Shown here piece after piece: positions 1 to 31,372 of a stretch of DNA of 64,000 nt. How positions within the stretch are numbered: position 1 is the first letter of the stretch; each line of letters opens with the position of its first letter. Location of the stretch: assembly GCF_030013905.1 (NCBI RefSeq), contig NZ_CP124862.1, positions 1,241,051 to 1,305,050 on the forward strand. Reading direction: 5' to 3'. The DNA is from Petroclostridium sp. X23 (GTDB lineage Bacteria; Bacillota; Clostridia; SK-Y3). The notes beneath the pieces are model-generated. The model was not told the origin of the DNA and did no database searches. It saw nothing but the letters and a program-made list of their open reading frames with translations. A program made the position numbers and the translations under genes.

Positions 1-866
1 AAATTATTGAAAAACTCCATTTCTTCCGGCGCATTTTCCATTACATACTGAATGATATACTTCATCATTTCTTCTGCCAGCTTCATATCATCTTTTAATT
101 CGGCAAACGCAATCTCAGGTTCAATCATCCAGAATTCAGCCGCGTGTCTTGCTGTGTTGGAATTTTCCGCTCTAAAAGTCGGACCAAATGTATATATATT
201 TCCAAAAGCCATGCAATACGTCTCGCCCTCTAACTGCCCGCTAACCGTTAAATTGGTTTGTTTTCCAAAGAAATCCTGAGAGTAATCAATATTTTCTTCC
301 TCATCTCTTGGGGTATCATTAAAATCCAAAGTAGATACCCTAAACATGGAACCGGCTCCCTCCGCATCACTCCCTGTAATTATAGGTGTATGGACATATA
401 CAAAGCCTCGCTCCTGAAAAAACTTATGTATTGCATATGCTAAGATAGACCTGACTCGAAAAACAGCTGAAAAAGTGTTTGTACGGGGTCTTAAATGAGC
501 AATGGTTCTCATATACTCAAAAGAATGCCTTTTTTTCTGCAGCGGATATTCGGGTAAAGAGGTGCCTTCAATTTCGATTCTTACCGCTTTCACCTCAAAT
601 GGCTGCTTTGCTTGTGGGGTCTCTACCAACTCACCTATTACTGTTATGGAAGCCCCAACATTTTGTTTTGATATTTCTTTGAAATTATCAATCTGATCTT
701 TTTCAAATACAATTTGAAGGTTTTTAAAAAAAGATCCATCATTGATCTCAATAAATCCAAAGGCTTTGGATACTCGAATGGTTCTTACCCATCCGGAAAC
801 CTCTACGGACCTATTAAAAAAGTCTTTCGTATTTTTATACAAATCTTTGATTGTTTGTCTCTCCAC
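1..866 (-). CDS. asnS: Asparagine--tRNA ligase, partial: N-terminal ~288 aa, C-terminus beyond window start
   Basis: Minus-strand translation from GTG at 866 gives [32 protein letters not shown]...[25 protein letters not shown], which is the class II aaRS motif 2 typical of AsnRS. RBS AAGGAGG at 879-873. Not in the ORF track because it is partial. Confidence 0.85.
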
Positions 867-1059: not shown

Positions 1060-1066
1060 TATTAAA

Positions 1067-2386
1067 TTATAATACCTTTGCAACATCATACAATGAATTC
1101 AGTACCAACCAATTCTGCGGGAAATATCGTCCTATTGTCCAATAACTTACTCCCCCAAGGTTATATTCATTCACCAGCCTCAACTTGGCTTCTATACTTC
1201 TTGCATCTTCAAACCACACGACATGCTGCTTTCCAGCAGCATCATAATAATTATAGAATGGCGCCTGAGCAACCGGATCATATTGGATTGCGGCGCTTAC
1301 TCTTGCTGCCTGATCCACCGCTCCCGTATTGGACAGGGTTCTTGCCTGCGTGCCCCGTACAAATGGAAGCGTCCAATCATAACCGTAATTGGGTATTCCC
1401 ATCAGGATCTTTTCAGAAGGTATAGCGGTTACCGCATAGTTTAATACTTTACGCACCTCATTAATAGGTGCTACTGCCAGCGGCGGACCGGCGGTATATC
1501 CCCATTCATAAGTCATGAGTATGACATGATCTACCAGAGCACCATGTACAGGATAATCATGCGCCTCATATAGCAGACCGGTTTGGCCGGCGGAAATCTT
1601 TGGTGCCAGCGCCGTACTGATTGTGTACCCTAATGGCCGGAGCCTCTGTACAACTTTTCTTAAAAAATTATTGTAATCTTCCCTATTCTCCGGATAGATA
1701 TACTCAAAATCGATATCCAATCCAAAATAGTTCTTTGTTCTTAAAATTTCGATGACATTATTTATCAATGTCTCTTGTGCTTCATTATTAGTCAGGATTG
1801 CTTGAGCAATATCGCTGTTAAAACCTCCGCCCTCTTCAAGGTTTGTTATTACCATCAACGGCGCAACATTCGCAGCTCTGGCTGCTTGAATAAGCGGCGT
1901 GTCGTCAATGGTGTTTAAGCTTCCGTCAGGCTTCACCTCATAACTGAATATGCTTAAATAGGTAAGATTCGGCAGTGTTTTCCTTAATACTTCCCTATCA
2001 ATATTGGGAAATGCATACCCATTTACCTCTATGGTACCCAATTTTTGAGTCCGTGGGGGTATGGTAATCACCTGTCCCGGATAGATCTGTGCCGGACTGG
2101 TAATCTGCGGGTTAGCCGCCAATAACGCTTGTACCGTTACACCATAATCTCTTGCAATCGCATAGAGTGATTGACCTGGAGCCACCCTATGCTGTCGGGT
2201 GCCTTCAAGAATTACCAATGTCTGCCCTACCACAAGTTGATTTGGATTGGCAAGTTCGTTATCAGCGATAATCTTTGAAGGTTGTACTCTATACAATCTT
2301 GCAATATTATACACACTTTCGCCCGGTCTTACAACATGAATAATCAACAACCTCACACCTTTCAAAAATATACTCTTATATTCCAA
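1067..2386 (-). CDS. LysM-LysM-GH18 protein, a YaaH/SleL-like spore peptidoglycan hydrolase (chitinase-like)
   Basis: Two N-terminal LysM motifs (VVRPGESVYNIARLY; HRVAPGQSLYAIARDYGV) followed by a family-18 glycosyl hydrolase core (GLDIDFEY catalytic motif). The listed start is TTG; an alternative TTG a few codons downstream sits behind GAGG. Confidence 0.75.
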   Translation of the reverse strand: MEYKSIFLKGVRLLIIHVVRPGESVYNIARLYRVQPSKIIADNELANPNQLVVGQTLVILEGTRQHRVAPGQSLYAIARDYGVTVQALLAANPQITSPAQIYPGQVITIPPRTQKLGTIEVNGYAFPNIDREVLRKTLPNLTYLSIFSYEVKPDGSLNTIDDTPLIQAARAANVAPLMVITNLEEGGGFNSDIAQAILTNNEAQETLINNVIEILRTKNYFGLDIDFEYIYPENREDYNNFLRKVVQRLRPLGYTISTALAPKISAGQTGLLYEAHDYPVHGALVDHVILMTYEWGYTAGPPLAVAPINEVRKVLNYAVTAIPSEKILMGIPNYGYDWTLPFVRGTQARTLSNTGAVDQAARVSAAIQYDPVAQAPFYNYYDAAGKQHVVWFEDARSIEAKLRLVNEYNLGGVSYWTIGRYFPQNWLVLNSLYDVAKVL

Positions 2387-2596: not shown

Positions 2597-4729
2597 ATGT
2601 CAGATCAAGATATCAAGAATTCCTATAACAGAAGTGCTGAGAGAATGCGGGGAGACAATAAGACTTTCGCATCTGCCCTTACCAGAGATGATACAAATGA
2701 TCCGACACTTCATGAAGATCTTCATGAAACCGTTCATGTGAATTATGATGATATCGAAAAATCTCCTTCCATGGAGCAGGTTCATCAGTGGCAGAGAGAA
2801 CATATGCAAAAAGACGATCAGTCCAAGGAAGGATACCCTCTTAATGTTATCATCGACCCGGCAATGCGGGAAATGTACCAGGTTGTACATAATGCAGGCA
2901 TGACCAATGTTTTTGACCGTTTCAGCCAACAACAGCCTATTCAGTGCAAATTCTGTATTGAAGGGTTGTCCTGCCAGCTTTGCGCAAATGGTCCATGCCG
3001 TATAAGCTCCAAGGTTCCCAGAGGGACCTGTGGTGTAGACGCACATACCATGGTTGCCAGAAATTTTGTATATCGGCATGTTACCATCGGTACTTCTGCG
3101 AATATATTCCATTGCCATCAGGCTGCAAGAACATTAAAAGCAGCGGGTGAGCATCCGGAAAGCGGATTAAAAATAAGAGATCCGGAAAAATTGAAAAAAT
3201 ACGCAGATATGGCAGGGCTGGATGCGAATAAACCAATTAATCAACTGGCTGTAGAATTTGCCGACTGGGTAATGTCTGATATTCACAGTCCCTTCCATAT
3301 TCCATCAAAAACAGTGGAAGCTTTTGCTCCGGCAAAACGTAAGGAATTGTGGAGAAATTTAGGGCTATTTCCCGGCGGCGGCTACAGCGAGGTCGCTTAT
3401 GCACAAACCATGTGCATGACCAACTTTACTTCCGACCCTGTAGCATTTTTACTAACCAGTGTACGTCTTGGTATTGCTAACGAATATCAAGGATTATTCT
3501 TATTGGATATTATCCAGGAAATACTAATGGGTACGCAGGAAATCGCTATGAAAAAGCAAAATATGGGACTGTTGAAAGAAAATATGATCAATATTGTCAC
3601 CAACGGTCATATGCCTCTTCTTGCCCATGTTGCCATCGATTTGGCTTCTACCGATGAATGGCAGCAAAAAGCCAAAGCAGCAGGAGCCGAGGGCATTCAA
3701 ATATTGGGACACGTATGTGAAGGACAGCAATTGATCAACTATGAGGGAATGCATAATCAAAAGGGATATGGCGGCCAGGAAGGCGAATGGCTGTCGCAGG
3801 AATATCTGCTGGCAACCGGCGTCGTAGACCTGTTTATGTTTGATTATAACTGTACTGTTCCAACCATGCCGCTTTTCGCAAAACGTTTTGGCACAAAACT
3901 ATTGAGTACGCATCCTGTAATAAAACTTCAAGGTACTGAAACTTTGGACTTTGTTCCTGAAAAAATGAAAGAACAGGCCGTGAAGGCACTTGATAAAGCG
4001 ATTGAATCTTTTAATAAAAGAAAAGGTACTAGTGAGAAAAAATATATTCCGCCGCATACATCAGATTGTATGGTAGGTTTTAGTACCGAATCGGTTAAAA
4101 AGGCATTAGGTGGAAGCTTCAAGCCCCTCATTGAACAAATCGCAAACGGAAACATCAGAGGCATCGCTACCATTGTTGGCTGTACTACTGCCCGTTATGG
4201 TCAAGGCGGCAGCAATATCTTCCGCATTACTCAGGGACTAATCAAAAATAATATATTGGTGCTATCGGGCGGATGTACCTCTGCTGTTATGGAATACACG
4301 GGACTTACAAACCCTAAAGCTGCAGATGAAGCAGGCGAAGGATTAAAAGCGGTATGCAAGCAATTGGGCATTCCTCCTGTATTGACCTATGGCGCATGCG
4401 TAGATATAGGAAAAATGACGCATACGGCAAAAGAAATTGCCGATGAGCTAGATGTGGATACCAATATGCTTCCTCTTGTCATCGGAGCACCTGAATATCT
4501 GGAGCAGAAAGCAGTCGCTGACGCATGTACCGCTGTTGCTCTTGGATGGCTGGTGCATGTCGCACCCGTACCTTCCATTACCGGCAGTGATGTTGTGGTA
4601 AAAACACTTACCGAAACAACTGAAACACTTGGACTAGGAAAAGTAGTTGTAGAAATGGATGCTGAAAAAACCATTCAAATTTATGTGGACCATATTGAAA
4701 AGAAACGTAAGGAGTTAGGATTGAACTAG
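2597..4729 (+). CDS. cooS: Anaerobic Ni-dependent carbon-monoxide dehydrogenase catalytic subunit (CooS family), with ~100-aa acidic His-containing N-terminal extension
   Basis: CKFCIEGLSCQLCANGPCRI...GTCGVDAHTMVARNF matches the CooS N-terminal B/D-cluster Cys motif and the following GxCG motif. Length 710 aa. RBS AAAGGAGGA at 2581-2589. No cooC, cooF or acs genes are adjacent. Confidence 0.8.
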   Translation: MSDQDIKNSYNRSAERMRGDNKTFASALTRDDTNDPTLHEDLHETVHVNYDDIEKSPSMEQVHQWQREHMQKDDQSKEGYPLNVIIDPAMREMYQVVHNAGMTNVFDRFSQQQPIQCKFCIEGLSCQLCANGPCRISSKVPRGTCGVDAHTMVARNFVYRHVTIGTSANIFHCHQAARTLKAAGEHPESGLKIRDPEKLKKYADMAGLDANKPINQLAVEFADWVMSDIHSPFHIPSKTVEAFAPAKRKELWRNLGLFPGGGYSEVAYAQTMCMTNFTSDPVAFLLTSVRLGIANEYQGLFLLDIIQEILMGTQEIAMKKQNMGLLKENMINIVTNGHMPLLAHVAIDLASTDEWQQKAKAAGAEGIQILGHVCEGQQLINYEGMHNQKGYGGQEGEWLSQEYLLATGVVDLFMFDYNCTVPTMPLFAKRFGTKLLSTHPVIKLQGTETLDFVPEKMKEQAVKALDKAIESFNKRKGTSEKKYIPPHTSDCMVGFSTESVKKALGGSFKPLIEQIANGNIRGIATIVGCTTARYGQGGSNIFRITQGLIKNNILVLSGGCTSAVMEYTGLTNPKAADEAGEGLKAVCKQLGIPPVLTYGACVDIGKMTHTAKEIADELDVDTNMLPLVIGAPEYLEQKAVADACTAVALGWLVHVAPVPSITGSDVVVKTLTETTETLGLGKVVVEMDAEKTIQIYVDHIEKKRKELGLN

Positions 4730-4834
4730 ATAAATGATAATAGAGTAATGGAAAGTGGGGAGTTTTCTGTCTCCTCACTTATAGATGATCAAATTGAAAA
4801 TTATAAACTTACAACTTATATCTTGCGAGTTCTT

Positions 4835-4864
4835 GTAGGGGCGGACAGGGTCGTCCGCCCCTAC
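4835..4864. terminator. Perfect 12-bp-stem hairpin between the convergent cooS and cheR-like genes; likely a bidirectional terminator
   Basis: gtaggggcggac-agggtc-gtccgcccctac, followed by an A/T-rich tract. A second weaker hairpin (agtggggag...ctcctcact) lies at 4754-4778. Confidence 0.5.
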
Positions 4865-4922
4865 AAATATCCTTTTAATAGATCATGGCATTCAAATCCC
4901 AAGTTTTTATATAGCCAGTTGA

Positions 4923-6071
4923 TCATGGCTTTCTTTTAAATATTTTATCAATGTCTTTATATTTATCAAAATACATGTACCCGTTGTTATGGGTTATTCC
5001 TTCACTCTTACCTAATACTAAAAAACCATTTCGTTCCAAAGAATTCCAAAAAACTTCCAGCACCTTTTGCTGCAGACTATTATTGAAATAAATCAATACA
5101 TTTCTACATAGTATTAGATGAAATTCATTCAATATACCTTGCTGGCATAGACTGTGTTCAAAGAACAATATATTCTTTTTCAAGTCTTCCCTAATCATCA
5201 GATATTTTCCTGTCATTGTAAAATAGTTCATAAAACTTTTCATTCCTCCGGCTTTTCGATAATTGATAATGCAATTATCCACATCATCCATCGGATACAA
5301 CCCATTTTTCGCTTCCTTGATTACCAAAGGATTGATGTCAGTGGCATAAATTTGTGTTTTCCCCAACATTCCGAGCTCGTCCAGCATCATTGCCATTGAA
5401 TATGGCTCCTGCCCGCTAGAACATCCTGCACACCATATCTTTATATGCGTAAAAGAATTTAAATACGGAAGTACCTTTTCACTAATTCTTCTATAGCTTT
5501 CAGGGTCTCTAAAAAATTCTGTAGTATTGATTGAAAAGTCCAATAATAGCTGTCCAAATTGTTCCTCATTTTCCAGTATCAATCTACGAAAATCGACAAA
5601 TCTTCCAATGCTCTTATTTAACATAGACAGCTTGATTCTCCTGATGATACTTTCCATTTGGTATTGAGTATAGTCATACCCATATTTAAGGAATAGTTCA
5701 TTCAAAAAATCTTTGACATCTTCTTCTTTTATTTTTTCTTTGTACGCTGGTTTATAATCGGATGTCACCCCTGTATACACAGTCTTTTCTCTAATATATT
5801 GACATTGGATATCCAGCTTGCTTAGATATGAAAATAGAAACCTTTTAACTACAAATATCTTGATTTTCTTATATTTCTGCATTGACATTAATATATTGAC
5901 TATATTTTTACTCAGTATACCGGCATCTGAAAAAGTCACATGCAGTTCCATATCATCTTTTTGTTTAAGCACAAAAATGAAATACTGTTCATCTTCGATG
6001 TTATATAAATCTCCAGAAACAAAAACATGCTTTATTCTATTATTCTCACGATGAACATTAATATTTCCCAT
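4923..6071 (-). CDS. CheR-type protein-glutamate O-methyltransferase with an extra ~110-aa N-terminal domain of unknown function
   Basis: CheR_N-like helix region (EDVKDFLNELFLKYGYDYTQY). SAM-dependent methyltransferase core (TEFFRDPESY, IWCAGCSSGQEPYSMAM, YATDIN, LCRNVLIYF). Last gene of the histidine-kinase operon. Confidence 0.75.
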   Translation of the reverse strand: MGNINVHRENNRIKHVFVSGDLYNIEDEQYFIFVLKQKDDMELHVTFSDAGILSKNIVNILMSMQKYKKIKIFVVKRFLFSYLSKLDIQCQYIREKTVYTGVTSDYKPAYKEKIKEEDVKDFLNELFLKYGYDYTQYQMESIIRRIKLSMLNKSIGRFVDFRRLILENEEQFGQLLLDFSINTTEFFRDPESYRRISEKVLPYLNSFTHIKIWCAGCSSGQEPYSMAMMLDELGMLGKTQIYATDINPLVIKEAKNGLYPMDDVDNCIINYRKAGGMKSFMNYFTMTGKYLMIREDLKKNILFFEHSLCQQGILNEFHLILCRNVLIYFNNSLQQKVLEVFWNSLERNGFLVLGKSEGITHNNGYMYFDKYKDIDKIFKRKP

Positions 6072-6125: not shown

Positions 6126-9100
6126 CTATTTATCTATCCAAGCCTTCACCAGACGAATTAACACATTATAATCTATGGGTTTGGAAATATAATCACTTGC
6201 TCCTACCGCAATGCATTTTTCCTTATCTCCTTTCAAGGTTTTTGCTGTTACTGCTATAATAGGAATATTCTTTAGTTTTTCATTATCCCGGATTGACTTT
6301 ATCATCTCATAACCGTCCATCACCGGCATCATAATATCCGTTAAAATCAAATCGATTTTATTTTCTTCAAGCTTTTTCAATGCAACTTTACCGTTTTCCG
6401 CCTCAATGATTTCAGCTCCATAATTCTCAAGTGTAGATGCCAACACAAATATATTTCTTGCATCATCATCAGCAATTAAAATCTTCTTTCCTTGTAAGTT
6501 TAAAGTATTTTTCTCATTTGCTGAAGAATGCACATACTGTCTATTCTTTTTTCTTACTTTATGCAAGAAAAGGGTTACTTCATCCAACAGCCGTTCATCC
6601 GAATTAGCTGTTTTAATAATAATGCTATCAGTATATTTGTTTAGTTGCTTTTCCATATCACCGGTTAATTCACTCGCGGTATAAATGATAATAGGAATTT
6701 TTATATTCTGCTCATCAATGAACTTACATATATCCATTCCATCTTCATCCCTTAACTGTAAATCCAATATTACGGCATCATATATTCTTTTAGAAAGTTC
6801 TGTTTTGGACTTCTCAACGCTATCCACACAAACGATTTGTATGTCTCCATTCCCAATTAATTCTTTCATCGCATTACGCTGAATCTCATCATCTTCAATA
6901 ATCAGTAAGTTTTTAGGACTCTTTTCCGAGAAAGCGATCATCTCAGAAATGATTCTGGCAACATCATTTGCATCAATAGGCTTCTGATAAAACCCTATGG
7001 CTCCCAATTTTTGCGCTTTGATATCTTTATTTTTCGCGGAAATGATATGTACAGGTATTCTTCTTAACTCTACATTATTTTTTATCTCTCTTAGCACTTC
7101 CATGCCGCTTATATCCGGAAGCATCAGATCAAGTAAAATTCCATCTATTTTATAATTCCGCACAAACTCTAATCCTATTTTTCCGGTAGGTGCAAGGAAT
7201 GTATTTAATCCCATGCCATCATTTATTTTTTTTATATATTTTGCAAAATCCGTATCGTCTTCAATAATGAGAATGTTCTTCTTTGATTGCCCTATACGCT
7301 CAATACCTTGTTCATCATCATTTAAACCTTCATGCGCTGCCGCAGTTTCTTCATATAGTATTTCCATCATATCATTAATGGCAATATTGCTTAAATGCAG
7401 TGAGAAAATGCTGCCTTTTCCCTCTTTAGTAACTACAGTAATTTTACCATCCATTATTGCTGCCAATTTGTTAGATATTGAAAGCCCTAAACCTGTTCCA
7501 CCATACTTTCTTGATATAGAACCATCCCCCTGCTTAAACTCTTTAAAGATGGTAAACAATTTTTCTTCCGGTATCCCTATACCTGTATCTGCAACTGAAA
7601 AAATGATCCCATTTTCTTTTTTCAGGTCCCGTGTCACTTGAAGTGTAACCGAACCTTCCTCAGTAAACTTGATTGCATTCGAAAGGAAATTACGTAAAAT
7701 CTGAGAAATTTTCTCTCGATCTCCTACTAATGCAGCATTTATCGAATCCTCCACCTCAAAATTTATGCCTTTTTCTTCTGCTGCCAAATGGAATAACTGC
7801 TGCATCTCTAATACCAATTCATTGGAATGGAACCTGGATATATTCAAATCCATTTTACCGGCTTCAATCTTTGAAAGGTCAAGAATGTCATTAATCAGAC
7901 GAAGAAGTTCCTGTCCGGCGTTGTATATTACATTGATTTTTTCCAATTCTTTTTCGCCTAATGCTTTATGCTCATTTCTAAACATTAGTTTAGATAGTAG
8001 TATGATAGAATTCAGTGGTGTACGCAGCTCATGAGACATATTGGCCAGAAATTCCGATTTGTATTTATTGGCTCGCTCTAATTCTATGGTACGATGATGC
8101 AGTTCCTCTTTAGACTGCTCCAATTCTTGATTCTTTTTACTAAGCATTCTGGACTGTTCTGCAAGCATTTGCTGTTGTTCTTCTAAATACGTGTTGGTTT
8201 GCTGCATTTCTTCACTCTGCTGTTGGAGCTGCTGCTGCTGTTCTTCTAACTCCGCATTTGTCTGTTGAAGCTCTAATGTTTGCTGATGAAGGAGTTTCTG
8301 TTGTTCTTCAAGCACTTCATTTGCTTTCTGCAGCTCTTGTGCACTCTCTTGTGCTTCTCTATGTGCTTGCTCGGTAATTTCAAACAGTTCTTTAATCTGC
8401 TGATTTTGAAGGGCAGAATATAGGTTGATTGATATTACTCTGCTTGCCTCTGCCATATATTCTTGTTTTAATTGGTCAAACACTTCAAAAGAAGACAGCT
8501 CAATCACACCATATAGTTCATCCTCATATACTAATGGAAATGCATAGATATTTAGGGGTGCTTCCTTGGAAGTTCCTGTTACAATCGTTGATTGGGACTT
8601 TTTAATATTTTTAAGATGGATAGGCCTTTTATCCACTGCAACTTGTCCGATAATTCCCTCCCCAAGCTTACAGCAGTTTAAAAGTTGATTTGCTTCATTA
8701 GAAGCAAATGTCGCTTGCAACTTTAAAACTTTCTCTTCAGGGTCATAAATATAAAAGACTCCATTCCCTGCCTCCATAATTCTTGAAAGAAGATTAATGG
8801 TTTTTTGGGCAAGGTCTTTTAAATCGAGGTCTCCCCAAAGCTCTTCATTAAGAAGATTTTGATTGTCCTTTATCCAGAACTGCTGTTTCAATTTTTTAAT
8901 TAATGTATTGTAATGTCCTGCCATATTAGTGATTTCATTTTCGCCCTCCAAGTCGGCTTCAGCTAATATGCCTGTATTGACACTGCTATACATTATTTTT
9001 CTCAGAAAACTAATTGGACTTATGATGCTGCGTATGATAAATACAAATATCCCCAAAGATATGAGGCAAAAAAAGATCATCCAAAAAATCTGCGTATTTT

Positions 9101-9668
9101 TTTGAAATTTCTGTACCTCGTTAGTTTGGTCTATAATTTCGCTGGTACGCTTAATAATTGTATCATCAATTTGCTCTAGTTTATTCTCAAGCTGCTGGAC
9201 AAACAATGTGTTTTTTACTTCAAAAGCCTCTTGCGCTTGTTGATGGTTTCCTTGTATAGCCAACATTATAATATCTTGTTGATTCTCTCTCCATTGTACG
9301 AGTATCTTGTCAATTTCTTTTCCTAATTGAGTTATTTCTTTCTCTTTGGTATTCCTTCGTACAATATCAAGTCGTCCATCCAATATCTGGTTTTGATAAG
9401 TCACTTCTTCTACCAGTCTCTGTACTTCGGACAGGTTCTCGGTTAATATGATTTCTCTCATTTTTGCTTCAGTTTTAAAAATCTGTACTCTCGCTTCAAT
9501 TGCAGCGTTGGATACCTTTAAATAATTATCGTGCATATTTTGCGCTAAACGCACCATTTGCTGCATTTGTAATATCTCAAATGCAGCAAACGCTATGAAC
9601 ATCATCATAAATATTGAAAATATGCCCAGTAATCTATTTTTAATACTTATATTATTTAAAAACCGCAT
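6126..9668 (-). CDS. Hybrid sensor histidine kinase: two TM helices with a periplasmic sensor, HAMP-like region, GAF domain, Gln/Glu-rich coiled coil, HisKA, HATPase_c and three receiver domains
   Basis: TM helices near residues 15-35 and 195-217. GAF-like segment (GEGIIGQVAVDKRPIHLKN). H-box ANMSHELRTPLNSI. G-boxes (DTGIGIPEE; GGTGLGLSI). Three REC domains (IIEDD...DLMLPD...K; IIEDD...DLQLRDEDG; IADDD...DIMMPVMDG...K). Confidence 0.85.
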   Translation of the reverse strand: MRFLNNISIKNRLLGIFSIFMMMFIAFAAFEILQMQQMVRLAQNMHDNYLKVSNAAIEARVQIFKTEAKMREIILTENLSEVQRLVEEVTYQNQILDGRLDIVRRNTKEKEITQLGKEIDKILVQWRENQQDIIMLAIQGNHQQAQEAFEVKNTLFVQQLENKLEQIDDTIIKRTSEIIDQTNEVQKFQKNTQIFWMIFFCLISLGIFVFIIRSIISPISFLRKIMYSSVNTGILAEADLEGENEITNMAGHYNTLIKKLKQQFWIKDNQNLLNEELWGDLDLKDLAQKTINLLSRIMEAGNGVFYIYDPEEKVLKLQATFASNEANQLLNCCKLGEGIIGQVAVDKRPIHLKNIKKSQSTIVTGTSKEAPLNIYAFPLVYEDELYGVIELSSFEVFDQLKQEYMAEASRVISINLYSALQNQQIKELFEITEQAHREAQESAQELQKANEVLEEQQKLLHQQTLELQQTNAELEEQQQQLQQQSEEMQQTNTYLEEQQQMLAEQSRMLSKKNQELEQSKEELHHRTIELERANKYKSEFLANMSHELRTPLNSIILLSKLMFRNEHKALGEKELEKINVIYNAGQELLRLINDILDLSKIEAGKMDLNISRFHSNELVLEMQQLFHLAAEEKGINFEVEDSINAALVGDREKISQILRNFLSNAIKFTEEGSVTLQVTRDLKKENGIIFSVADTGIGIPEEKLFTIFKEFKQGDGSISRKYGGTGLGLSISNKLAAIMDGKITVVTKEGKGSIFSLHLSNIAINDMMEILYEETAAAHEGLNDDEQGIERIGQSKKNILIIEDDTDFAKYIKKINDGMGLNTFLAPTGKIGLEFVRNYKIDGILLDLMLPDISGMEVLREIKNNVELRRIPVHIISAKNKDIKAQKLGAIGFYQKPIDANDVARIISEMIAFSEKSPKNLLIIEDDEIQRNAMKELIGNGDIQIVCVDSVEKSKTELSKRIYDAVILDLQLRDEDGMDICKFIDEQNIKIPIIIYTASELTGDMEKQLNKYTDSIIIKTANSDERLLDEVTLFLHKVRKKNRQYVHSSANEKNTLNLQGKKILIADDDARNIFVLASTLENYGAEIIEAENGKVALKKLEENKIDLILTDIMMPVMDGYEMIKSIRDNEKLKNIPIIAVTAKTLKGDKEKCIAVGASDYISKPIDYNVLIRLVKAWIDK
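8160..8345 (-). repeat. Coding heptad repeat in the hybrid histidine-kinase coiled coil: three L-E-E-Q-Q-x-x-L units (a Glu-Gln pair motif like MCP methylation sites)
   Basis: The DNA units ctgttgttcttc / ctgctgctgttcttc recur. Translation: EVLEEQQKLLHQQT ... AELEEQQQQLQQQS ... TYLEEQQQMLAEQS. Confidence 0.6.
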
Positions 9669-9712: not shown

Positions 9713-11002
9713 CTACAAACAAATATCAGATAACTCCACCTGTACTTTTTTAAGGATATCCGGTTCTGCATTGTATACTAAATAACTATCCACATTCTTT
9801 TGATGTGTTTGCAAGTTATCCGGCAGCTCAACTATAAATTCCGTACCTTTTTTTTCGCTTGTCTTCACAAAAACCTGTCCATCATGCATCTCTACAAGAG
9901 ATTTGACCAGCCATAACCCTATTCCCGCTCCTTCATAATTTCTGGTAAATAAATGGTCTGTCTGTTTGAATTTTTCAAAAATAGCGCTTAGATTATCTTC
10001 TCTTATACAGGGCCCGTCATTCTTTACCGATATATGAACTGCTCCATCCAGCTCTTGTATATTAACTTCTATCGTTCCGCCATCTAAAGTAACTTTTATC
10101 GCATTAGATAATAAATTTAAAATAATCCGTTCAATGGCACTGATATCACAATTAACCATTTTTTGCGGTACATCTGAACGAAAAAAAACCATAATACCTT
10201 TTTTCTCTATAAATTCTTTTACGGATAATGTAAGTGTCTCAATCACCTGTACGATGTTGCACACAGTCCTGTTCAAAGTATAATGGCCGACATCGATATG
10301 AGTAATATCAAGCAAATTATTAATAAGACGCTGAAGCCTATAGCAGTTCTGCATCTGTACTTTTATTCTTTTTAAATATTTTTCTTTATGAGGAGTATCA
10401 TCGTTTTGGATATATATATTCATTAACTGAGTAGTACTTAACAATACATTTAGAGGTGTTCTAAGCTCATGCGATAAATTAGCTAGAAACATACTTTTTG
10501 CCTCATTCGCCGCTTCAGCTTCTTCTTTGGCTTTTCGTAACTCTTCGGTTTGCTGACGTACTTTCTTTTCCAGAAGAAGATTCATATTCCGTTCTTTTTC
10601 GATAAGTTTAAGATATACATTTATTCTATTGATTAATTGGTATTCATCTATGGGTTTAGTAAGGTAATCTACTGCACCAATTTCAAATCCTCTTCTTTTA
10701 AATTCTTCACTTATGTAAGATGCAGTTAAAAAAACAATAGGGATATCTCTTGTCTTCTTTCTTCTTTTTAAGATTGCCGCCAGTTCAAATCCATCCATTT
10801 CATCCATATGTACATCCAATATAATTAAATCTACAGAGTGTTTAAGAAGTACCTTTAGTGCCTTATCTCCACTATTTGCTTCAATAACATCCGCATTAAT
10901 ATATTGTTCGATTAATATCCGTAACGAGAATAAATTATTGTTATTATCATCAACAATTAATATGGTATAAGATGAAGTCTTCTCCATGATCCACTCCTCC
11001 AT
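9713..11002 (-). CDS. Response-regulator-histidine-kinase fusion: N-terminal REC, coiled coil, HisKA, HATPase_c; soluble
   Basis: REC (ILIVDDN...DLIILDVHMDEMDG...K). H-box LANLSHELRTPLN. ATPase G-boxes (NDGPCI; GAGIGLWLV). The likely true start is the second ATG at 10987, which sits behind GGAGGAG. Confidence 0.8.
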   Translation of the reverse strand: MEEWIMEKTSSYTILIVDDNNNNLFSLRILIEQYINADVIEANSGDKALKVLLKHSVDLIILDVHMDEMDGFELAAILKRRKKTRDIPIVFLTASYISEEFKRRGFEIGAVDYLTKPIDEYQLINRINVYLKLIEKERNMNLLLEKKVRQQTEELRKAKEEAEAANEAKSMFLANLSHELRTPLNVLLSTTQLMNIYIQNDDTPHKEKYLKRIKVQMQNCYRLQRLINNLLDITHIDVGHYTLNRTVCNIVQVIETLTLSVKEFIEKKGIMVFFRSDVPQKMVNCDISAIERIILNLLSNAIKVTLDGGTIEVNIQELDGAVHISVKNDGPCIREDNLSAIFEKFKQTDHLFTRNYEGAGIGLWLVKSLVEMHDGQVFVKTSEKKGTEFIVELPDNLQTHQKNVDSYLVYNAEPDILKKVQVELSDICL

Positions 11003-11185
11003 TACAATTATATGTTTTCGACAAATTTCAGCTATTAATCGATGTTATTTTCAAAAATTTATCTTATATACTATTTTATCCTAAAATCCCCAATTGTCAA
11101 ACAATTATCGCTCTTTTTTTTATTAATTTCTACTAAATTGTGTATAATTATTACATAATATGAAAGTCTCATATTGCTCTATTGA

Positions 11186-12064: not shown

Positions 12065-13684
12065 ATGCAGCAGAAGAAGGATTTCATCATACAAAATACT
12101 GTACTTATACTATATATACTGTTGGTTTCAACCGTTTCCATTTTTCATGAACCATGGTTTGATGAAGCACAAGCATGGCTGATCGCACGTGATAATACTA
12201 TTTGGGATATCTTATGGCATGTACTGCGTTATGAAGGGCACACGCCTTTATGGCATTTGTCTCTTTATTTGCCCGCGCATATAGGCGTGCCTTACGAGTG
12301 GGGATTAAAACTTATTAATCTCACTTTTGCTTCTTTAGCCGCCGCAATGATTATAAAAAAATCTCCTTTTCCGCTTTTGATGAGACTTCTACTGCCTTTC
12401 ACCTATTTTCCTTTTTATCAATATGGTGTTATCAGCAGGAGCTATTCTCTTCTTTCTTTTATACTCTGGCTTGTGGCAGCTTCTTTTTCATCGCGCAATA
12501 AAAGTCCGATAAAGTTTTCTCTCCTGCTGGCTTTATTGGGCGGAGTCACTTTACATGGAGTACTGATTGCTTTTGGTGTAGCAGTTGCCTGGTTCTTAGA
12601 AATCATCCTTGACCATCATAAAGCCTCACGAAACATGAACAACACAGCCTGCAAGGTCATAGTTGATATCCGATTTTATTCCTTATTACTACTTGGATTG
12701 ATTAATGCCAGCTATCTTGCAATGCTTTGGCCCATGCCTGACAGGTTTACACCGCTCCAGAATCAAGGACTAAATCTTGGGGACTTTATGTTTACTCTTT
12801 TTATTGCACCTCTCAATAGCATTGCAACAGATGTTTGGCCGGGTATTTCAAGCAATTCTATTGAACTGCTGCTATTATTATTTCTAATCGGCACTATTCT
12901 AACTGCCGTTTTTTTGATATATGCCCGGTATAACGGAGTACTGCCGTATGTAGCACTGCCCTATATTTTCACGTCAGCTTTTATGTCGTTTATCTATTTT
13001 TCACTTCACCACTCAGGAATCTATATGCTTATAATATTATTTGGAATATGGCTGATGTTGAGTAACGAGCAACCTTTTAAAACATTAAGGGACAAGCACA
13101 CACGGTGGCATTCTTTTAATACTAAAATAAAAGTTTCTATTATAAGGAAACGTTGTCTTGCAGTATGCATTATGTGTGTATTTTTTGTTCAAATCTATTG
13201 GTCTGCCGCTGCATCAATCAATGATATCAAGCTGCCCTATGTATCGGCAAGAGATGTTGCGTCGTTTATTAAGCAAAACGGAATAGCAGGAAGAAAAATT
13301 TTTAATAGTTACAGCGTCTGGAACGACAAAGTATCCTTCTCTACCCAGAACATTGCATTACTGCCCTACTTTTCAAATAATATTTTTTATAATCACAATC
13401 AAGGGAAAGTAAATATGAGCTTCATCACACATCGTATATGGAGTGATGCTGATGCAATGAATTATTTAAAAAATGCGGATGAACCTGAATTTGTGATTGA
13501 ATATAAATATCCGTTATCCTTTTACTCCGATGTATTAACACCGGATGACTATATCCCAGTCGCATCTTTTGACAGTCATTATATATGGAAGAATCAAATC
13601 AACCATGATACATGTAATATCTATATCCGCAAAGATTTACAAACTCAGTTTCCCCATCTTAACGCTATGATAGGAGGTAATTAG
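12065..13684 (+). CDS. GT-C fold polyprenyl-phosphate-sugar-dependent glycosyltransferase (PMT/ArnT-like integral membrane protein)
   Basis: About 11 TM helices and a C-terminal soluble domain. First extracytoplasmic loop carries the DE motif (HEPWFDEAQAW) typical of GT-C enzymes. RBS GGAAGGAG. Confidence 0.6.
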   Translation: MQQKKDFIIQNTVLILYILLVSTVSIFHEPWFDEAQAWLIARDNTIWDILWHVLRYEGHTPLWHLSLYLPAHIGVPYEWGLKLINLTFASLAAAMIIKKSPFPLLMRLLLPFTYFPFYQYGVISRSYSLLSFILWLVAASFSSRNKSPIKFSLLLALLGGVTLHGVLIAFGVAVAWFLEIILDHHKASRNMNNTACKVIVDIRFYSLLLLGLINASYLAMLWPMPDRFTPLQNQGLNLGDFMFTLFIAPLNSIATDVWPGISSNSIELLLLLFLIGTILTAVFLIYARYNGVLPYVALPYIFTSAFMSFIYFSLHHSGIYMLIILFGIWLMLSNEQPFKTLRDKHTRWHSFNTKIKVSIIRKRCLAVCIMCVFFVQIYWSAAASINDIKLPYVSARDVASFIKQNGIAGRKIFNSYSVWNDKVSFSTQNIALLPYFSNNIFYNHNQGKVNMSFITHRIWSDADAMNYLKNADEPEFVIEYKYPLSFYSDVLTPDDYIPVASFDSHYIWKNQINHDTCNIYIRKDLQTQFPHLNAMIGGN

Positions 13685-30181: not shown

Positions 30182-31372
30182 TTACTCCGAAGCCTTAAAG
30201 TTATATACCGGCTTAATAATATCCAGTATTTCAACAGTATCGTTAATATTATTTATAATTTCCTCCATTGGTTTGTATGCCATAGGGGCCTCATCTACAG
30301 TGGAACGGTCCACACACGTTGTGTAAATCCCTTCCATAGATTTTTTGTATTCTTCCATGGAGATTCTTTCTTTTGCAGCGCCACGGCTCATCAGCCTTCC
30401 GGCTCCATGGGGAGCCGAATAGTTCCAGTCGGCGTTTCCTTTTCCTATGCAGATCAGCGCACCATCCCTCATGTTCATGGGAATAAGTACTTTTTGCCCC
30501 TCATAAACAGCAATGGCTCCTTTGCGAAGGATTTTCGCCTGAACTTCGATATAGTTATGGATAGTGGTAAAACGTTCCGTCTCATCTACCTTCATATGAC
30601 CCAAAATCTCATCTACAATGGCCAGTCTGTTGAGAACGGCATACTGTTGCACGATCTCCATATCATGAAGATAATCATCGAATAGATCACCCTCCACATA
30701 AGCCAATTGTTTGGGTACCTTCATATAATTAAGTTTCTTTAGTTCATCTTGTATTTCATTTTTTCTTCCTTGTTCCTTCAAATCCTCAATAAGTTTCTGC
30801 TTCTCTTTTGATTTTTTGTTCAAGCTGTTGAAAGCAGTCTTCTGATAATATTCCGCCACTTGCTTTCCCAGATTTCTGCTCCCTGAGTGAACAACCAGCC
30901 AGTACTTGCCCTCTTGGTCTACATCCACTTCTATAAAGTGATTCCCTCCGCCCAAGGTTCCTACACTTAGCTGTGCTCTCCTGAAATTAACATGCTTTAA
31001 ACATCTTAGGTCCTCAAGTCCGGCTTTTTTCTCATACTTATGAATCTTAGACCGTATATCGAAACCTGATGGTACATTTTTTCTAATCACACTATCCAGC
31101 GCTCCCAAATCCAGTTTGCGGACTTTTAATCTTACTGCTTCCATTCCACACCCAATATCCACCCCCACCAGATTGGGCACAATCTTGTCTGAAATGGTCA
31201 TTGTCGTTCCAATCGTGCATCCTGCTCCGGCATGCGTATCGGGCATGATTCTTATCGTACTGTCTTTCACAAATTCTTGATTGCATAGCTCTATGATTTG
31301 TGAGACAGTCTGTTCTTCTACATGATCTATGTATACTTTTGCAGTATTATATTTCCCTTTTACTTCTATCAT
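30182..31372 (-). CDS. rtcB: RNA-splicing ligase RtcB (3'-phosphate/5'-OH RNA ligase)
   Basis: PDTHAGAGCTIG, GNHFIE, PHGAGR metal/GTP-binding motifs. 396 aa. Confidence 0.8.
   Translation of the reverse strand: MIEVKGKYNTAKVYIDHVEEQTVSQIIELCNQEFVKDSTIRIMPDTHAGAGCTIGTTMTISDKIVPNLVGVDIGCGMEAVRLKVRKLDLGALDSVIRKNVPSGFDIRSKIHKYEKKAGLEDLRCLKHVNFRRAQLSVGTLGGGNHFIEVDVDQEGKYWLVVHSGSRNLGKQVAEYYQKTAFNSLNKKSKEKQKLIEDLKEQGRKNEIQDELKKLNYMKVPKQLAYVEGDLFDDYLHDMEIVQQYAVLNRLAIVDEILGHMKVDETERFTTIHNYIEVQAKILRKGAIAVYEGQKVLIPMNMRDGALICIGKGNADWNYSAPHGAGRLMSRGAAKERISMEEYKKSMEGIYTTCVDRSTVDEAPMAYKPMEEIINNINDTVEILDIIKPVYNFKASE

Follow-up and report, generated by a model that had tools for sequence, protein, structure and literature searches.

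What is the function of a long helix rich in Gln and Glu in a histidine kinase whose gene is followed directly by that of a CheR-like methyltransferase? The question is raised by a 64,000-nt stretch of DNA from Petroclostridium sp. X23 (contig NZ_CP124862.1, positions 1,241,051 to 1,305,050; hereafter, the window), in which translation revealed a hybrid sensor kinase of 1180 amino acids (aa) encoded on the minus strand (9668..6126). The protein is 100% identical to one Petroclostridium sp. X23 protein entry. A preliminary description of this DNA had pointed to three LEEQQ motifs in the kinase and had proposed that they are methylated by the neighboring enzyme, in the manner of chemoreceptors. 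Our analysis makes it fairly probable that the region serves as adaptation helix in a hybrid histidine kinase of the RsbK type, which is encoded in a three-gene cassette and would be methylated by a CheR-like protein with an additional STAS domain (STAS-CheR). From the observed anatomy, conservation, homology and gene linkage, we infer the methylation, the acceptor residues, the effect on signaling and the tethering by the STAS domain.

A conserved 21-residue repeat

The three LEEQQ strings quoted in the preliminary description were found in the translation of the kinase exactly as given (Table 1), and the Pfam positions bore out that the helix lies between the GAF domain (residues 281-414) and the H-box His546. 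The motifs had been described as one heptad apart; LEEQQ begins at residues 453, 474, and 495, and the spacing is 21 residues, corresponding to three heptads and not to 7 residues. The range assigned to them (8160-8345, residues 442-503) ends 9 nt short of the end of the last one. The repeat unit of the window kinase reads L-E-E-Q-Q-Q-x-L-Q-Q-Q-S-E-E-L-Q-Q-T-N-x-x, and the consensus of 120 homologues (Clostridia, some Bacteroidota, and others) was LEEQQxLLQQQ(T/S)EELQQTNxxLEEQQQLLQQQSEELQQTNxQLEEQQQxLEEQS.

The repeat is highly conserved. In 30 orthologues at 44-55% identity, the mean column entropy was 0.74 bits for residues 453-505 and 0.52 bits for residues 474-499, compared with 0.80 bits for HisKA, 1.21 bits for HATPase_c, and 1.48 bits for GAF; by this measure residues 453-505 are better conserved than the GAF or HATPase_c domains. 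The composition of the helix is 24% Gln, 21% Glu, and 15% Leu. In 200,000 composition-preserving shuffles of residues 441-535, three or more LEEQQ motifs were never obtained, and two were obtained in 96. The 63-nt units encoding the repeat are identical at only 32-39 of 63 positions, and no 63-nt array was reported by Tandem Repeats Finder, indicating that the repeat is not a recent duplication.

Along the helix, every seventh residue is Leu or Met (453, 460, ... 530). If these residues are assigned to heptad position d, the a layer is formed by polar residues (Q/S/T/N), with Asn every 21 residues (471, 492, 513, and 534), the Glu pair of LEEQQ falls at e/f, and the interleaved S-E-E-L/M pair falls at b/c. 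An AlphaFold2 monomer model gave two helices of low confidence (399-453 and 474-564; helix predicted local distance difference test score, pLDDT, 36-60) with a break at 454-473; the model was set aside for register assignment because the break is probably an artefact of modeling an obligate dimer as a monomer. A Pfam search with the helix alone gave no family match, only generic coiled-coil noise. Separately, a 12-nt tandem repeat of three copies (window 8334-8368, consensus CTCTTGTGCTT), which encodes AHREAQESAQE, was seen in the kinase gene, adjoining the Gln-rich repeats on their N-terminal side.

Homology to RsbK and RsbM

The hybrid kinase RsbK of Bacillus cereus, consisting of CHASE3, HAMP, GAF, S-helix, histidine kinase, and REC segments with His505 as the phospho-His, is methylated on its signaling helix in vitro, as measured with 14C-labeled S-adenosyl-methionine (SAM), by RsbM, a CheR-like protein that is encoded directly downstream and has no partner esterase (Chen et al. 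2015 PLoS One, PMC4574943). Methylation of RsbK is required for sigma-B repression and strengthens the interaction between REC and the helix, and 127 RsbK-like kinases with rsbM neighbors were reported from 10 phyla (PMC4574943). This was the one case of methylation of an ordinary histidine kinase found in the literature; our searches found no CheR-methylated histidine kinase other than that of RsbK/RsbM.

As the proxy for comparison, the RsbK-type kinase P0121 (Metabacillus) was used, whose locus has the order kinase / CheR / REC-PP2C, as in rsbK-rsbM-rsbY. The B. cereus RsbK sequence itself was absent from the best 120 matches of an RsbK-type query and from the best 150 representatives; P0452 (896 aa) was considered as B. 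cereus RsbK and rejected, its REC numbering being the same but its His being H513. The RsbK sites were therefore placed by their offset from the phospho-His across about 160 RsbK-type sequences.

The window kinase showed 33% identity to P0121 over 742 aa (E 9e-104), in an alignment extending from residue 194 (HAMP) to REC; HAMP (PF00672) is annotated in several of its orthologues. Of its three REC domains, the third (REC3) is 50% identical to the REC of P0121 (E 1e-36) and is also the most conserved (0.88 bits vs 1.53 and 1.56), with D1111, T1141, and K1163 invariant in alignment A3. The core of the window CheR-like protein showed 40% identity to the RsbM-type protein of locus L084 (E 8e-59); its match to B. 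subtilis chemotaxis CheR was weaker (E 2e-33). A counterpart of the third component was not found: tblastn with the RsbY of L084 gave REC matches only and no PP2C in the 64-kb window, and no sigB, rsbV, or rsbW was seen among the open reading frames (ORFs) scanned (about 1-34 kb of the window). The output partner appears from the sequence to be the co-encoded REC-kinase, rather than RsbY/sigma-B.

Because the RsbK helix is methylated by RsbM, the two systems are homologous, and the kinase-CheR order is conserved, the methylation reading of the preliminary description is partly supported, in outline; in its details it is wrong or unproven, and helix methylation by an adjacent CheR-like enzyme was already known in principle from RsbK/RsbM.

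Gene order in related loci

The CheR gene had been said to adjoin the kinase gene, and it begins 54 bp downstream on the same strand (PF01739, E 3e-45); the REC-kinase gene, also on this strand, precedes the hybrid kinase gene by 44 bp. Gene order was compared in 80 related loci from many phyla, which were collected by scanning one genome per species and chosen by similarity to the query. A CheR-like ORF was present in 54 of the 80 loci, nearly always on the same strand and overlapping the kinase stop or within about 30 bp of it, and a REC-HisKA-HATPase gene was near the hybrid kinase in 49. The position of this REC-kinase is upstream in Clostridia and downstream of CheR/CheB elsewhere, and no Hpt domain was seen with the REC-kinase/hybrid kinase cassettes. 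The cassette of REC-kinase, hybrid kinase, and 380-aa CheR recurs in Acetivibrio thermocellum, C. pasteurianum, and Geosporobacter with unrelated flanks and no CheB; the REC-kinase gene lies directly upstream in A. thermocellum and Geosporobacter, and one binding-protein gene intervenes in C. pasteurianum.

A CheB esterase domain, free or fused, accompanied CheR in 35 of the loci with CheR. The free form, of about 200 aa and without a receiver, was found in 24 loci (31 by direct BLAST), where it follows CheR (L026:7142-7801 and 23 further loci), and fusions of an N-domain, CheB, and CheR of about 560 aa, with CheB domains confirmed by Pfam, were found in 5. A receiver-less CheB would, judging by its domain content, be an esterase outside the usual phosphorylation control. 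No CheB-like sequence was found anywhere in the 64-kb window.

The helix and the methyltransferase gene tend to occur together. Among 105 H-box kinases of these loci with room downstream, at least two in-register [EQ]E[LMI] heptads were associated with a downstream CheR (43/48 vs 23/57, odds ratio 12.7, Fisher p 2e-7), where the p-value is indicative only because the loci are related and were chosen by similarity. A CheR-neighbored kinase lacking the motif, which the preliminary description had named as the refuting case, was not found among the related loci, since each of five apparent exceptions has an explanation. In L048-L050 the hybrid kinase and CheR are separated by the REC-kinase, and L020 has a helix of the M-E-E-Q-Q type. 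The fifth, the alphaproteobacterial L044 (8789-13234), was rejected as a counter-example, as it does have the Glu-rich helix following GAF, separated from the H-box by an inserted PAS domain; this insertion indicates that the helix tracks the GAF C-terminus and not the dimerization and histidine phosphotransfer (DHp) domain.

As a separate observation, the kinases with a Gln-rich helix include a sub-clade of 1385-1460 aa (P0112 and relatives; L085:7001-18164) that has no CheR/CheB within 7 kb. The next genes there encode two 4HB-HAMP-GAF proteins lacking a kinase domain, and a further GAF hybrid kinase comes after these.

Candidate methyl-acceptor residues

Glu439 is reportedly the preferred methylation site of RsbK and Glu446 the second. 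The corresponding positions, 66 and 59 residues before the phospho-His, are both Glu followed by Leu in the RsbK-type sequences, and each is the second Glu of an S-E-E-L-Q-x-Q heptad, at position c. The Leu register is common to the window and RsbK-type helices, and LQQQSEEMQ of the window (481-489) matches LQTQSEELQ. The repeats make a residue-to-residue mapping ambiguous, and consequently only the heptad position can be transferred. The equivalent positions in the window kinase are E466, E473, Q480, and E487.

Position 487 is Glu in 101 of 107 orthologues and position 486 in 91; the two stand out by their conservation, since b/c positions vary in general. In the same orthologues, Gln (58) and Glu (39) alternate in column 473, and columns 473, 494, and 515 all switch between E and Q in the way known from chemoreceptor methylation sites. 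The Glu pairs of LEEQQ at e/f, which had been proposed as the modified sites, are also conserved, but not at RsbK-equivalent positions: they follow the core Leu, unlike the RsbK Glu residues, which precede it. E486-E487 is therefore the best-supported candidate for the methyl-acceptor pair as far as alignment can tell.

The CheR-like protein and its STAS domain

The CheR-like protein matched PF01739 and, weakly, PF03705, and aligned with 5FTW, 1AF7, and 1BC5. FFR, GCSxGxE, ATD, and CRNVxIY, which lie within the CheR SAM-binding motifs, were invariant in 34 homologues; these residues presumably have the catalytic role that they have in CheR proteins generally. Its best 120 homologues are all 361-392 aa in length.

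An N-terminal domain of about 100 residues, unrecognized by Pfam, was retained in 34 of 34 aligned homologues. Its AlphaFold2 model (pLDDT 90.2) has the beta-beta-alpha-beta-alpha-beta-alpha fold of STAS domains, and in our reading of the alignment a conserved Ala occupies the usual STAS phospho-Ser position, which in the SpoIIAA/RsbV type begins helix 2. A hidden Markov model of this domain matched only CheR ORFs beside LEEQQ-type kinases, including STAS-CheB-CheR fusions of Bacteroidales/Campylobacterales. Reciprocally, at least two LEEQQ-type motifs were found only in kinases beside a STAS-bearing CheR. The co-occurrence suggests a tethering role, and shared ancestry could explain it equally well. 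As a tether, this previously unannotated domain may explain how the methyltransferase finds its substrate.

Triple fusions of a STAS-like domain, CheB, and CheR were seen directly downstream of LEEQQ-type kinases in Bacteroidales and Campylobacterota (L004:12766-14496, L020:2212-3891, and also L005, L006, and L052), and the Clostridial CheR-like proteins look like the same protein minus the CheB part. The idea that Gln-richness compensates for a missing esterase was rejected, because the Gln-rich helices of Bacteroidales/Campylobacterota come with STAS-CheB-CheR fusions.

Proposed mechanism and alternatives

Covalent methylation serves chemoreceptors as memory and set-point. In the proposed mechanism, the helix would be a parallel dimeric coiled coil relaying the signal of the 4HB, HAMP, and GAF segments to His546 of DHp. 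The CheR-like enzyme, using SAM, would methyl-esterify a few exposed Glu residues of the helix, most probably those before a core Leu/Met (E487, then E473 and E466), and the neutralization of charge would alter helix packing. As in RsbK, methylation would favor the docking of REC3 on the helix and DHp, restraining phosphotransfer to a partner that is probably the co-encoded REC-kinase, and the STAS domain probably tethers the methyltransferase to the kinase. Because no esterase is encoded nearby, methylation would provide a set-point, either constitutive or slow to change, and not a fast reversible adaptation; a set-point of this kind has been proposed for B. cereus.

In addition to the limited meaning of the p-value given above, several points weigh against this mechanism. 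Methylation of the window kinase or of its Clostridial orthologues is deduced from homology and gene linkage. The mapping of the RsbK sites depends on the residue numbers E439/E446 reportedly given by Chen et al. (2012, Environ Microbiol) and is ambiguous by one heptad (Q480/E487 ungapped, E473/Q480 by BLAST). The same helix occurs without CheR within 7-10 kb in L085, L003, L008, L011, L013, L014, and L028, which implies a role of the helix independent of a cis-encoded CheR. Positions a, d, e, and g are the most conserved in column entropy and b and c the least; this is the normal pattern of a coiled-coil interface (PMC1592074), and no enzyme is required for it. Finally, the asserted likeness to chemoreceptor methylation sites holds for the periodic Glu/Gln pairs but not for the consensus EExxA(S/T), which had no match in the window helix and 0.00 matches per sequence in 120 orthologues. 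A scan for this consensus was rejected as a predictor for the family because it was also negative in RsbK-type kinases known to be methylated; the consensus was essentially absent from 120 RsbK-type kinases and was present only in 29% of E-rich relatives, as Q-E-E-L-Q-A-T-N.

One alternative is that the LEEQQ repeats are a docking surface, for example for the STAS domain or a receiver, and not methyl-acceptors, with any catalysis at the interleaved S-E-E-L/M, much as the C-terminal pentapeptide of chemoreceptors tethers CheR/CheB away from the modified sites. We regard this as unlikely. One argument for it is distribution: at least two [LMI]EE[QHN][QH] motifs occurred only beside a CheR with the STAS domain (the window, L001, L081-L083, L004, L005, and L006; L054 was cut off by a contig end), and among the kinases listed none with a short CheR or without CheR reached two. 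The e/f placement of the LEEQQ pair, after the core Leu and unlike the positions implicated in RsbK, and the lack of any LEEQQ in RsbK-type kinases known to be methylated point the same way. However, the co-occurrence could be co-inheritance within one subfamily, and in the Campylobacterota L005, L006, and L020 the Glu pairs are only of the form M/L-E-E-Q/A despite the STAS-CheB-CheR fusion, where the pair may be the substrate.

A second alternative, which we judge less likely again, is a purely structural or signaling coiled coil resembling the S-helix, with a dynamic polar core and Glu/Gln serving inter-helix contacts; the adjacent CheR would then have a different substrate, for instance the REC-kinase or chemoreceptors whose genes lie elsewhere. 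The conservation of a, d, e, and g above b, c, and f is what coiled-coil packing leads one to expect (PMC1592074), and the related kinases that keep the helix without a nearby CheR and the missing chemoreceptor consensus also favor it. On the other side, it is the kinase that was shown to be methylated in the homologous RsbK/RsbM pair, the examined parts of the window showed no chemoreceptor, CheA, or CheW, the tight kinase-CheR(-CheB) order across phyla is hard to explain otherwise, and L044 keeps the helix beside GAF, together with CheR and CheB, despite the PAS insertion before the H-box. A third possibility, that the motif is generic low-complexity sequence or arose by recent in-frame duplication and has no specific function, would be suggested only by the compositional bias of the stretch and is refuted by the conservation data, with the repeat near-invariant in about 107 orthologues from Clostridia to Bacteroidota and lacking in unrelated kinases of the same loci, as well as by the shuffles and the absence of a DNA-level repeat.

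Returning to methylation of the helix by STAS-CheR, a wider joint reading is tentative and, taken as a whole, rather doubtful. The cassette would be one example of a widespread and scarcely studied class of two-component systems that adapt covalently in the style of chemotaxis; a complete set, found in many phyla, comprises a hybrid kinase, CheR, a CheB without a receiver, and a REC-kinase. Within the LEEQQ subfamily, the fused, non-phosphorylatable STAS domain would recruit the methyltransferase to the kinase by binding the Gln-rich repeat or the GHKL ATPase, as RsbV binds RsbW, and the Gln-rich repeat would be a largely 'pre-amidated' (methyl-mimicking) helix. In Clostridia, where the CheB domain would have been lost, two or three adjustable Glu residues would be left, and reversible adaptation would have become a set-point device.

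Transcription unit and neighboring genes

The features of the cassette are listed in Table 1. A promoter-like site before the first gene and a strong hairpin after the last suggest that the REC-kinase, hybrid kinase, and STAS-CheR genes form one three-gene operon, the hairpin probably being a bidirectional terminator.

Table 1. Features of the kinase cassette, with window nucleotide positions and protein residues.
Feature	Nucleotides	Residues	Strand	Basis or remark
Promoter-like TTGACA-16-TAAAAT	11073..11100		-	About 70 bp upstream of first gene; 11/12, top match in scanned region; consensus match only
REC-HisKA-HATPase_c protein, 429 aa, first cassette gene	9713..11002		-	Pfam Response_reg 2e-25, HisKA 8e-15, HATPase_c 7e-25
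Hybrid sensor kinase, 1180 aa	6126..9668		-	Translation, Pfam
Kinase 4HB_MCP_1 sensor		6-181		Pfam
Kinase transmembrane/HAMP-like segment				Between 4HB_MCP_1 and GAF
Kinase GAF		281-414		Pfam
Kinase Gln/Glu-rich helix	8064..8351	about 440-535	-	GAF C-terminal helix to DHp helix 1
LEEQQ motif 1 string EVLEEQQKLLHQQT	8318-8277	451-464	-	Translation
LEEQQ motif 2 string AELEEQQQQLQQQS	8255-8214	472-485	-	Translation
LEEQQ motif 3 string TYLEEQQQMLAEQS	8192-8151	493-506	-	Translation
Three 21-residue repeats, each LEEQQ-initiated	8124..8312	453-473, 474-494, 495-515	-	10-13/21 aa identity between units
Degenerate fourth repeat unit	8061-8123	516-536	-	
Candidate acceptor E466	8271-8273	466	-	Glu just before core Leu
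Candidate acceptor E473	8250-8252	473	-	Glu just before core Leu
Candidate acceptor pair E486-E487, in S-E-E-M-Q-Q-T-N	8208..8213	486-487	-	Only b/c Glu-Glu pair before core Leu/Met, matching RsbK-type E-E-L
Kinase HisKA		537-604		Pfam
Kinase phospho-acceptor His546, H-box SHELRTP	8031..8033	546	-	Sequence; invariant in alignment A3
Kinase HATPase_c		649-759		Pfam
Kinase REC domains, three				Pfam; C-terminal to HATPase_c
Kinase third receiver domain REC3	6147..6482	1063-1174	-	Counterpart of single inhibitory RsbK REC
CheR-like protein-glutamate methyltransferase, 382 aa	4923..6071		-	PF01739 SAM-binding domain, E 3e-45
CheR-like protein, N-terminal STAS-fold domain	5772-6071	about 1-100	-	
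CheR-like protein, CheR_N and SAM-binding core	4974-5720	118-366	-	
GC-rich hairpin, 14-bp stem	4833..4866		.	Between convergent CheR-like and prismane-family genes

The gene convergent with that of the CheR-like protein (2597-4729, plus strand) encodes a 710-aa member of the prismane/CO-dehydrogenase family, whose N-terminus extends about 125 residues beyond the Pfam match. Divergent from the cassette, a 539-aa ORF without a Pfam match (12065-13684, plus strand) lies directly upstream of genes for a GtrA-family membrane protein and an FAD-dependent amine-oxidase-like protein. Farther away, an RtcB-family RNA ligase-like ORF (30182-31372, minus strand) scored far under the curated cut-offs of every RtcB model, with its matches split over two or three stretches, and may represent RtcB in a divergent or rearranged form.

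Significance and comparison with known systems

Three features appear to be new: the 21-residue Gln-rich repeat, a conserved partner that is a REC-kinase, with no esterase encoded in the window, and the STAS domain on the methyltransferase. The sequences suggest that an RsbK-like logic operates in a conserved Clostridial cassette, including those of the cellulolytic A. thermocellum and the solvent producer C. pasteurianum, and related kinase-CheR-CheB-REC-kinase cassettes occur across many phyla. E487, E473, and E466 provide concrete candidates to set against the LEEQQ pairs. If the reading is true, adaptation by methylation would be a general option for two-component signaling and not a peculiarity of chemotaxis.

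The helix resembles the S-helix, a parallel coiled-coil linker of about 40 residues (5 heptads) with an E-R-T signature in the central heptad (Anantharaman, Balaji and Aravind 2006, PMC1592074), in linking a sensor to DHp as a parallel coiled coil, in its polar interface residues, and in the tendency of b/c to be acidic; the RsbK segment was itself called an S-helix by Chen et al. It differs in its length of about 95-110 residues (13-15 heptads), and E-R-T is not present as such, the window kinase having H525-R526-T527 and the family [K/E]-R-[S/T].

Like the helices of methyl-accepting chemotaxis proteins (MCPs), it carries heptad-periodic Glu/Gln pairs on a long coiled coil, and in some columns E and Q alternate. 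In the kinase, the 4HB sensor and the HAMP-like segment also resemble those of chemoreceptors, the enzyme belongs to the CheR family, and many relatives of the kinase have CheB encoded as well. No MCP signaling domain (PF00015) was detected in the whole window kinase at E up to 0.01, and the expected structure of the helix is a parallel coiled coil of two strands that leads into DHp, in contrast to the four-helix hairpin bundle by which MCPs control CheA. Unlike chemotaxis CheB, the CheB of the related loci has no receiver domain. The STAS-CheR protein is comparable to CheB-CheR and CheR-TPR fusions in bearing an extra domain, presumably for targeting; it differs from CheB-CheR fusions in having as its accessory domain a STAS fold, in which Ala takes the place of the usual phospho-Ser, and in that the CheB part is missing from Clostridial members.

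With RsbK-RsbM-RsbY, the window system shares the order of a periplasmic helical sensor, HAMP, GAF, a long Glu/Gln helix, HisKA, HATPase, and REC, the CheR-type gene directly downstream without a paired esterase, the Leu register of the helix, with E-E-M at 486-488 where RsbK-type helices have heptad-periodic E-E-L units, and the C-terminal REC as the conserved one. However, RsbK has one REC and the window kinase three, and Pfam recognized only 4HB_MCP_1 in the sensor of the latter but both CHASE3 and 4HB_MCP_1 in P0121. The helix unit is the 21-residue LEEQQQxLQQQSEELQQTNxx instead of the 7-residue S-E-E-L-Q-x-Q, the methyltransferase has an N-terminal STAS domain unlike RsbM, and the co-encoded partner is a REC-kinase instead of the RsbY of B. 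cereus. In summary, judged by sequence comparison, the window system is a Clostridial variant of RsbK/RsbM with a 21-residue Gln-rich repeat and a STAS-fused methyltransferase.

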